A stretch of DNA of 64,000 nt from Escherichia coli (GTDB lineage Bacteria > Pseudomonadota > Gammaproteobacteria > Enterobacterales > Enterobacteriaceae): assembly GCF_003334815.1 (NCBI RefSeq), contig NZ_QOWO01000005.1; one strand, 5' to 3'. The position numbers were made by a program, and so were the translations under genes. The notes under the pieces are model-generated. The model was not told the DNA's origin and ran no database searches. It saw only the letters and a list, made by a program, of their open reading frames with translations. Position 1 is the stretch's first letter. The number at the start of each line of letters is the position of its first letter. Shown here in pieces: positions 46,423 to 46,603 of the stretch.

Positions 46423-46445
46423 ATGCCGCCCGCTATCCGGGGCGG
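46423..46445 (+). terminator. GC-rich hairpin immediately after the yaiO stop
   Basis: gccgccc-gctatccgg-gggcggc 7 nt after the yaiO stop, followed by C/T-rich sequence including a C10 run. Confidence 0.45.
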
Positions 46446-46526
46446 CCTTCCCTGCCGATTAGCCCCCCCCCCTTTCCTCTTTGTTTTCCGACCACATTCA
46501 CCGGATAAATTTTATTCTCCAGTGTT

Positions 46527-46580
46527 ATATACTATAGGGGGGTATGCATTGACATATAGAATACCCCCCTATAGTATATT
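46527..46580 (+). promoter_or_regulatory. frmRAB promoter with FrmR operator (inverted repeat with G6/C6 tracts)
   Basis: TATACTATAGGGGGGTAT ... ATACCCCCCTATAGTATA, 24 nt upstream of the frmR ATG. Confidence 0.75.
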
Positions 46581-46603
46581 GCATGCAGATGATGAGGTGC
46601 GAA

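Follow-up and report, generated by a model that had tools for sequence, protein, structure and literature searches.

The 180 nt between yaiO and frmR in this Escherichia coli DNA are a composite, made of two parts that have been joined and that have different histories. The segment is quite probably best read as a known repressor-controlled promoter adjoined by a neutral, slippage-prone homopolymer, the latter lying in a 3' tail that possibly loads Rho. As a whole, it is ordinary and already known. Throughout this paper, the window means the entire stretch of DNA that was analysed, 64,000 nt in length. An earlier note, written from the sequence alone, had described three structured elements within 180 nt: a GC-rich hairpin, a run of ten cytosines and an operator dyad for the repressor FrmR. 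All three are present, and the coordinates it gave are good to 1–2 nt. The ten cytosines lie exactly at 46463–46472. The hairpin exists, but its arms were measured at 46425–46446 rather than at 46423–46445, and the dyad, reported at 46529–46578, starts one position off, the two 18-nt strings that had been quoted for it occupying 46528–46545 and 46561–46578. The features of the region are collected in Table 1.

Table 1. Features of the yaiO–frmR region, in window coordinates, with the evidence for each
Feature	Coordinates	Strand	Evidence
yaiO CDS, outer-membrane beta-barrel protein	45643..46416	+	ORF list; TIGR04390 YaiO domain, 182 bits; RefSeq annotation
GC hairpin: 7-bp stem GCCGCCC (46425-46431) / GGGCGGC (46440-46446), 8-nt loop	46425..46446	+	-16.8 kcal/mol
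C-rich, G-poor pyrimidine stretch, candidate rut-like Rho-loading region	46447..46510	+	Composition; inference
C10 homopolymer, length-polymorphic, recurrent ISEc20 insertion point	46463..46472	+	Sequence; alleles C6-C11 and interrupted forms
Junction of variable island DNA and conserved frmR promoter	46501..46512	.	Strains with other islands align solely from here
Left operator arm, FrmR site I: ATAC (46529-46532), 9-bp tract TATAGGGGG, GTAT (46542-46545)	46527..46545	.	Perfect inverted repeat; Denby 2016 description
-35 element TTGACA, within the 15-nt spacer between operator arms	46549..46554	+	Promoter scan, 10/12 consensus matches
Right operator arm, FrmR site II: ATAC (46561-46564), GTAT (46574-46577)	46561..46579	.	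Inverted repeat; Denby 2016
-10 region: TATAGT (46570-46575) or TAGTAT (46572-46577)	46570..46577	+	Promoter scan; genomic SELEX listing
Shine-Dalgarno sequence GAGGTG of frmR	46594..46599	+	Sequence
frmR, 91 aa, 276-nt RefSeq CDS	46604..46879	+	NF008464 FrmR equivalog, 189 bits (cut-off 133); PDB 5LBM, E = 4e-55
Operator-controlled genes frmA (46914-48023) and frmB/fghA (48117-48950)	46914..48950	+	TIGR02818, 745 bits; TIGR02821, 394 bits

The gene names are confirmed by NCBIfam matches (189 bits for FrmR, where the cut-off is 133; 182 for the YaiO domain; 745 for FrmA; 394 for FghA), and the RefSeq annotation of matching genomes agrees with them. The FrmR protein encoded in the window matches the solved E. 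coli FrmR structure, PDB 5LBM; its second-best NCBIfam match is RcnR, at 68 bits. The yaiO reading frame closes with a TGA, read from the sequence at 46414–46416, and yaiO is the final gene of an accessory cluster that also holds yaiP and an acetyltransferase gene, yaiX. In the window, yaiX (44931–45641) is intact and lacks the IS2 of K-12, and the flanks are otherwise K-12-like. The best match to the queried region among 5426 genomes has 99.6% identity over 261 nt, and the base at 46423, an A in the window, is C in every other genome compared. An 82-aa open reading frame at 46423–46671 was rejected as a gene: its ATG depends solely on this window-specific A, and its reading frame crosses the operator and the frmR start. 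A permissive Rfam scan of 46300–46700 returned solely sub-threshold matches to eukaryotic miRNA and snoRNA families, which arise because of the palindrome.

The two arms of the operator dyad, 19 nt each, are 100% complementary and stand 15 nt apart. It was the sole inverted repeat returned by a repeat search of 46380–46640, and by our own estimate a perfect 19-nt dyad is expected by chance about 1e-5 times in 64 kb. Type I sites of the CsoR/RcnR family were reportedly described by Iwig and Chivers in 2009. The window has the sequence of such a site, ATAC-TATAGGGGG-GTAT, at 46529–46545 and its mirror at 46561–46577, and the pair lies in the promoter of a CsoR/RcnR-family repressor gene, over the core elements, its arms enclosing the -35 and the right one containing the -10. 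Denby et al. (2016; PMC5146963; Sci Rep 6:38879) place in E. coli Pfrm a large inverted repeat that has its centre at -29 and holds tandem type I sites, each a 9-bp GC-rich tract with ATAC and GTAT flanks, and they give a table of EcFrmR–DNA rate constants. The sequence fits this description at both sites, and the identification of the dyad as the FrmR operator, which the earlier note had made, is borne out. The dyad is the published tandem type I operator of FrmR; it was already known, and our confirmation adds nothing new.

A promoter scan found a single sigma-70-like site, with TTGACA at 46549–46554, a 17-nt spacer and TAGTAT ending at 46577, and a genomic SELEX study lists the frmRAB promoter as TTGACA-15-TATAGT (PMC3946193). 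The predicted transcription start falls at about 46582–46584. Counting 29 from the repeat centre at 46553 gives 46582, which is consistent with the position of -29 stated by Denby et al. and fits a -10 element at 46570–46577. Site I abuts the upstream edge of the -35 and site II overlaps the -10. The operator is thereby positioned to exclude RNA polymerase, an ordinary geometry for a repressor. On its own promoter fragment, Salmonella FrmR binds at a ratio of two tetramers to one DNA (PMC4528141). As is established from the literature, FrmR tetramers on the operator keep RNA polymerase off the sigma-70 promoter of frmRAB; formaldehyde cross-links FrmR between Pro2 and Cys35, so that FrmR is released and frmR, frmA and frmB are derepressed. 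Denby et al. (PMC5146963) report that FrmR needs its Pro2 N-terminus to sense formaldehyde. In-frame ATG codons at 46583–46592 were rejected as the frmR start: none of them lies beyond the predicted start of transcription, and it is the annotated ATG that yields this required N-terminus. Pfrm is already in use as a formaldehyde biosensor. A search of a 2026 paper on formaldehyde resistance for promoter mutations yielded nothing, and a study of long-term stationary phase lists a parental difference at frmR/yaiO.

The promoter is nearly universal in the species, its region being matched in 5416 of 5426 complete E. coli genomes. Among 66 E. coli-type loci, 58 have neither operator arm altered, and the variant operator sequences come mostly from metagenome contigs of ~1–3x coverage. 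Common differences among E. coli fall outside the arms, A or C at 46560 and A or G at 46584; at 46560, the window has the A of the K-12-type spacer, C being the base in most strains. The operator's G6 tract is kept in 61 of the 66 loci. The earlier note had regarded the C/G tracts as prone to slippage, and this is right for the C10 run, which ranges from C6 to C11 among strains, but the G6/C6 tracts of the operator keep a constant length in E. coli.

Conservation extends to the orthologous repressor genes of other species. An ATAC-N9-GTAT site was found no more than 150 nt upstream of 65 of 80 FrmR orthologues, twice in 18; as a control, the remaining 241,858 nt of the same loci contain three. 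The tandem inverted layout around TTGACA also occurs in Edwardsiella, Providencia, Serratia, Aeromonas and others. The central tract of the orthologous sites is C-rich and usually not a homopolymer (TCCAC, TCCCC and TGGAG are examples), and Escherichia albertii has ATACTCCCC in one operator arm. Since these tracts are C-rich and rarely homopolymeric, G6/C6 is a local form of a general C-rich tract. The upstream regions of frmR are near-identical in an Edwardsiella anguillarum plasmid, an Enterobacter sp. and Morganella; a second such cross-genus group comprises a Citrobacter metagenome-assembled genome, Klebsiella grimontii and Maribrevibacterium. Judged by sequence identity, these groups suggest a horizontally mobile frmR cassette that may carry its own tandem operator.

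Upstream of the promoter, conservation gives way to variable DNA. The 89 nt at 46424–46512 were found in just 4358 genomes, and ~1058 genomes, about a fifth, keep the frmR promoter without the hairpin and the C run. In these, homology starts at ~46501 or ~46512 (query position 122 or 133), with tauA directly upstream in some and an fbpC transporter island in others. The conserved block thus begins 15–26 bp upstream of the left operator arm. The yaiP–yaiX–yaiO cluster stands upstream of frmR in ~80% of genomes. The promoter of frmR thus borders on a point at which one accessory island can be exchanged for another. Because the promoter is kept without the tract in ~1058 genomes, the tract is unlikely to be required for control by FrmR, and reporter assays on C-tract variants would probably show little effect on formaldehyde induction.

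The C10 run is the sole homopolymer of at least eight bases in the window; by our own estimate, ~0.09 C10 or G10 runs are expected by chance in 64 kb. It begins 47 nt past the yaiO stop; measured from its 3' end, the operator is 54 bp and the -35 is 77 bp further downstream. The earlier note had proposed comparing its length across E. coli genomes, with invariance as the outcome that would count against slippage; the length varies from C6 to C11. Exact matches to the 89 nt, C10 included, number 726 records. We took a systematic sample of 58 full-length matches to the 89-nt region in RefSeq genomes, in which the length equalled that of the query in 14, exceeded it by one in 6 and fell short by one in 5, by two in 12 and by three in 21, these differences not all being pure changes of the C run. 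In this sample, the +1-length matches with three mismatches are the interrupted allele CCCCTATCCCC, and those of ~89% identity are GCCCCTC. Alleles were also read directly from 57 metagenome contigs, giving C6 in 1, C7 in 18, C8 in 16, C9 in 9 and C10 in 5, and the forms CCCCACCCCC in 5, CCCCACTCCC in 2 and CCCCCCCCA in 1. Fetched genomes added C11 (MIN9), CCCCTATCCCC (PA45B), GCCCCTC (M172-1 and 7/2) and C9 (Nissle). K-12 MG1655 has C10; BL21-RIPL is two bases shorter than the query by match length, which implies C8; and E. whittamii has a diverged, longer C-rich sequence at the tract.

The history of the run was followed on a neighbour-joining tree of 39 loci built from 2 kb of flanking sequence. 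The tract requires at least 12 state changes on this tree. Flank sites that vary need 1.5 on average and never more than 6, the majority of flank sites stay constant, and no other position in ~2 kb is as changeable as the tract. Its alleles nevertheless follow clades. Of 12 pairs of loci whose flanks are identical, 8 have the same allele; among pairs with more than 20 flank differences, ~10% do.

Within a single lineage, the run is far steadier. The IS2 insertion in yaiX served as a marker of the K-12 lineage and is carried by 364 assemblies. A C11 query was matched exactly by one of them, strain WF5-5-T2, whose sequence has no other difference from MG1655 over 6 kb, and a C9 query by 17. This leaves up to 346 (~95%) with C10; an unmatched assembly either has that length or departs from the query at another position. 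Many of the C9 assemblies are of laboratory strains with a C10 near-twin: at matching coordinates, NEB5-alpha F'Iq has C9 and NEB 5-alpha has C10; both lengths occur among C600 assemblies; and a single MG1655 assembly with C9 stands beside many with C10. A one-sided bias towards -1 is a product of homopolymer under-calling in long reads. The 17 C9 calls are probably such under-calls, though they could be real slippage. Real change of the tract within the K-12 lineage amounts to at most ~5% of assemblies, and probably to much less. Long-read K-12 assemblies are likely to mis-call the homopolymer here, and the length that they give for it could be used to judge their quality.

The run is also a point at which an insertion sequence has entered. 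The 89-nt region is split in two in ~88 genomes, and a junction query found ISEc20, an IS110-like element, joined to the yaiO-side flank in 87. Both genomes that we examined have ISEc20 in the middle of the tract with different flanking alleles, C6 on either side in AR_0151 and C5 on either side in 95-3322; the insertions in the tract share one orientation and fall on at least two flanking haplotypes. Four other, independent ISEc20 loci have C4–5 on the left and C6 on the right: the fadL–yfdF intergenic region, plasmid pEC31-2, the inside of rtcB, and a site between a hypothetical gene and a helix-turn-helix regulator gene. The empty fadL–yfdF site is itself a polymorphic C8–C11 run, judged by match lengths of 198–201 nt to a 200-nt C10 query. 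That site is split in ~96 genomes; we examined one of the occupied copies, that of M217, and it holds ISEc20. The element occurs in 1120–1463 genomes, with 1–9 copies.

From these junctions, ISEc20 appears to target long poly-C runs. The pattern probably also fits a two-base CC core at both junctions, whereby a C10 run would yield 6 + 6. The 5' non-coding region of ISEc20 (L004, 1100–1190) contains a C5 run (CTTCCCCCAG), a G6 run (TCCGGGGGGTG) and a copy of the right-end motif AATAGGGGGCA. The C5 and G6 runs could be guide segments of a bridge-type RNA that match the poly-C target, or they could simply form a stem; a scan of ISEc20 with Rfam for a known guide-RNA family gave no match, and a literature search on target choice by ISEc20 found nothing. 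The apparent targeting of poly-C by ISEc20 is a modestly new lead, of interest for the target rules of IS110-family recombinases.

The hairpin that precedes the run starts 8 nt after the yaiO stop. It is less exceptional than the dyad and the C run: the window holds ~6 distinct perfect 7-bp GC-rich stems, of which it is one, compared with ~1.5 expected, and when folded, its 96-nt context is no more stable than shuffled sequence (z = -0.66). All 11 yaiO-bearing E. coli sequences in our alignment have the identical hairpin, and that of E. whittamii differs by a single C-to-T change, which leaves a G-U pair possible; the alignment has no compensatory changes and gives conservation only. Around the hairpin, 78-nt windows over 46425–46523 have the largest C-over-G excess in the 64 kb, with C/G of 2.5–3.2 (top 0.04%), and they provide an untranslated, C-rich, G-poor RNA of ~70–80 nt such as is expected of a rut site. 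Elsewhere in the window, 5494–5592 is the sole region that equals this excess.

Rho prefers untranslated, C-rich, G-poor RNA, and the transcripts that it terminates are often trimmed back to a stable stem. Positions 46417–46510 are the yaiO 3' untranslated tail and lie at the border of the accessory island. In this tail, the hairpin most likely marks or protects the 3' end of the yaiO mRNA, and the C-rich, G-poor stretch with the C10 run may load Rho and stop read-through before the frmR promoter. Composition thus points to a tail whose most likely role would be to stop read-through from the island ahead of that promoter, with the hairpin protecting the yaiO message. A literature search found nothing linking yaiO to Rho or bicyclomycin, and no data on yaiO transcript 3' ends.

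Other explanations can be offered for the same tail. The hairpin might be a Rho-independent terminator of yaiO, with the C run as mere downstream filler. Its stem is stable (7 bp of GC, -16.8 kcal/mol, 8 nt past the stop) and is conserved in every aligned yaiO-bearing sequence, E. whittamii included, but an intrinsic terminator is a GC stem-loop followed by a U-run, and here no T-run lies 3' of the stem; the next bases are CTTCCCTGCC. A scan of 46300–46700 for intrinsic terminators, moreover, returned no terminator-like site, and we consider this explanation unlikely. Pairing of the GGGG at 46439–46442 with the C run as a terminator was also tried and rejected, being absent from both the minimum-energy and the centroid folds. 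A more far-reaching proposal makes the poly-C run, together with the C-rich DNA around it, an insulator that loads Rho between the yaiO island and frmRAB, with tract alleles and recurrent mid-tract ISEc20 insertions setting strain-specific read-through into frmRAB and hence its basal expression; we think it very unlikely that this is so.

As to the run itself, a natural suspicion is that it is a phase-variable contingency switch in which frequent slippage toggles or tunes the expression of frmRAB or yaiO. At ten bases, it exceeds the ~8 nt or more of such repeats and is long enough to slip; it differs in length among strains, it is the most changeable position in the neighbourhood, and WF5-5-T2 has C11. 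Against this, it lies outside any coding sequence, the -35/-10 spacer and the regulator site, 77 bp short of the -35; about a fifth of genomes have the promoter and no run; and an uninterrupted tract is not maintained across lineages, the interrupted or decayed forms CCCCACCCCC, CCCCACTCCC, CCCCTATCCCC, GCCCCTC and CCCCCCCCA being tolerated in them. Some 95% of K-12-lineage assemblies are C10, and the deviations (1 C11 and 17 C9 among the 364, all assembly-level calls) are biased towards -1 and occur in near-isogenic laboratory strains, which fits long-read error and suggests a fault of assembly. The alleles, finally, follow clades. A switch is on these grounds highly improbable. Equally improbable is the idea that the run persists as an attachment target for ISEc20, a landing pad able to separate yaiO from frmR. 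The mid-tract insertions in 87 genomes, in one orientation and on at least two haplotypes, and the C-flanked copies at four other loci, one of whose empty sites is a C8–C11 run, speak for it; yet a role as target explains the insertions and not the existence of the run, 98% of yaiO-bearing genomes have no insertion, some of the flanking C bases could belong to the ends of ISEc20, and the TTGACA at its right end has, in our reading, no usable -10 in the flank. We return, then, to a known FrmR-controlled promoter next to a neutral homopolymer. The varying length of the run most probably comes from slippage and is largely neutral, not a regulatory switch; it is a genuine difference between strains that should not be taken for phase variation.

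Several known systems resemble parts of this segment. Rho-dependent terminators with a protecting stem-loop are like the yaiO tail in having a ~65-nt C-rich, G-poor stretch after the stop and a hairpin that lacks a U-tract, although for the yaiO tail the resemblance is one of composition alone. The contingency loci of Neisseria, Haemophilus and Campylobacter likewise have a G/C homopolymer of ~10 nt whose length depends on the isolate; unlike them, the run in the yaiO tail cannot alter a reading frame, the -35/-10 spacing or a regulator site, and it is stable in the K-12 lineage, interrupted in several others and lost together with the island in about a fifth of genomes. With the E. coli PfrmRAB operator as presented by Denby et al. 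(2016), our locus and sequence are the same and nothing material differs; the centre-to-centre spacing of the two sites is 32 bp by our count, against the 31 bp stated there. The RcnR operator of rcnR–rcnA (TACT-G6-N-AGTA, two sites 19 bp apart) also has tandem sites, bound by a paralogous four-helix-bundle repressor. The FrmR operator differs from it in its flanks and register, ATAC-N9-GTAT, in its wider spacing of ~32 bp, and in that its two sites are mutually inverted and form one long dyad.
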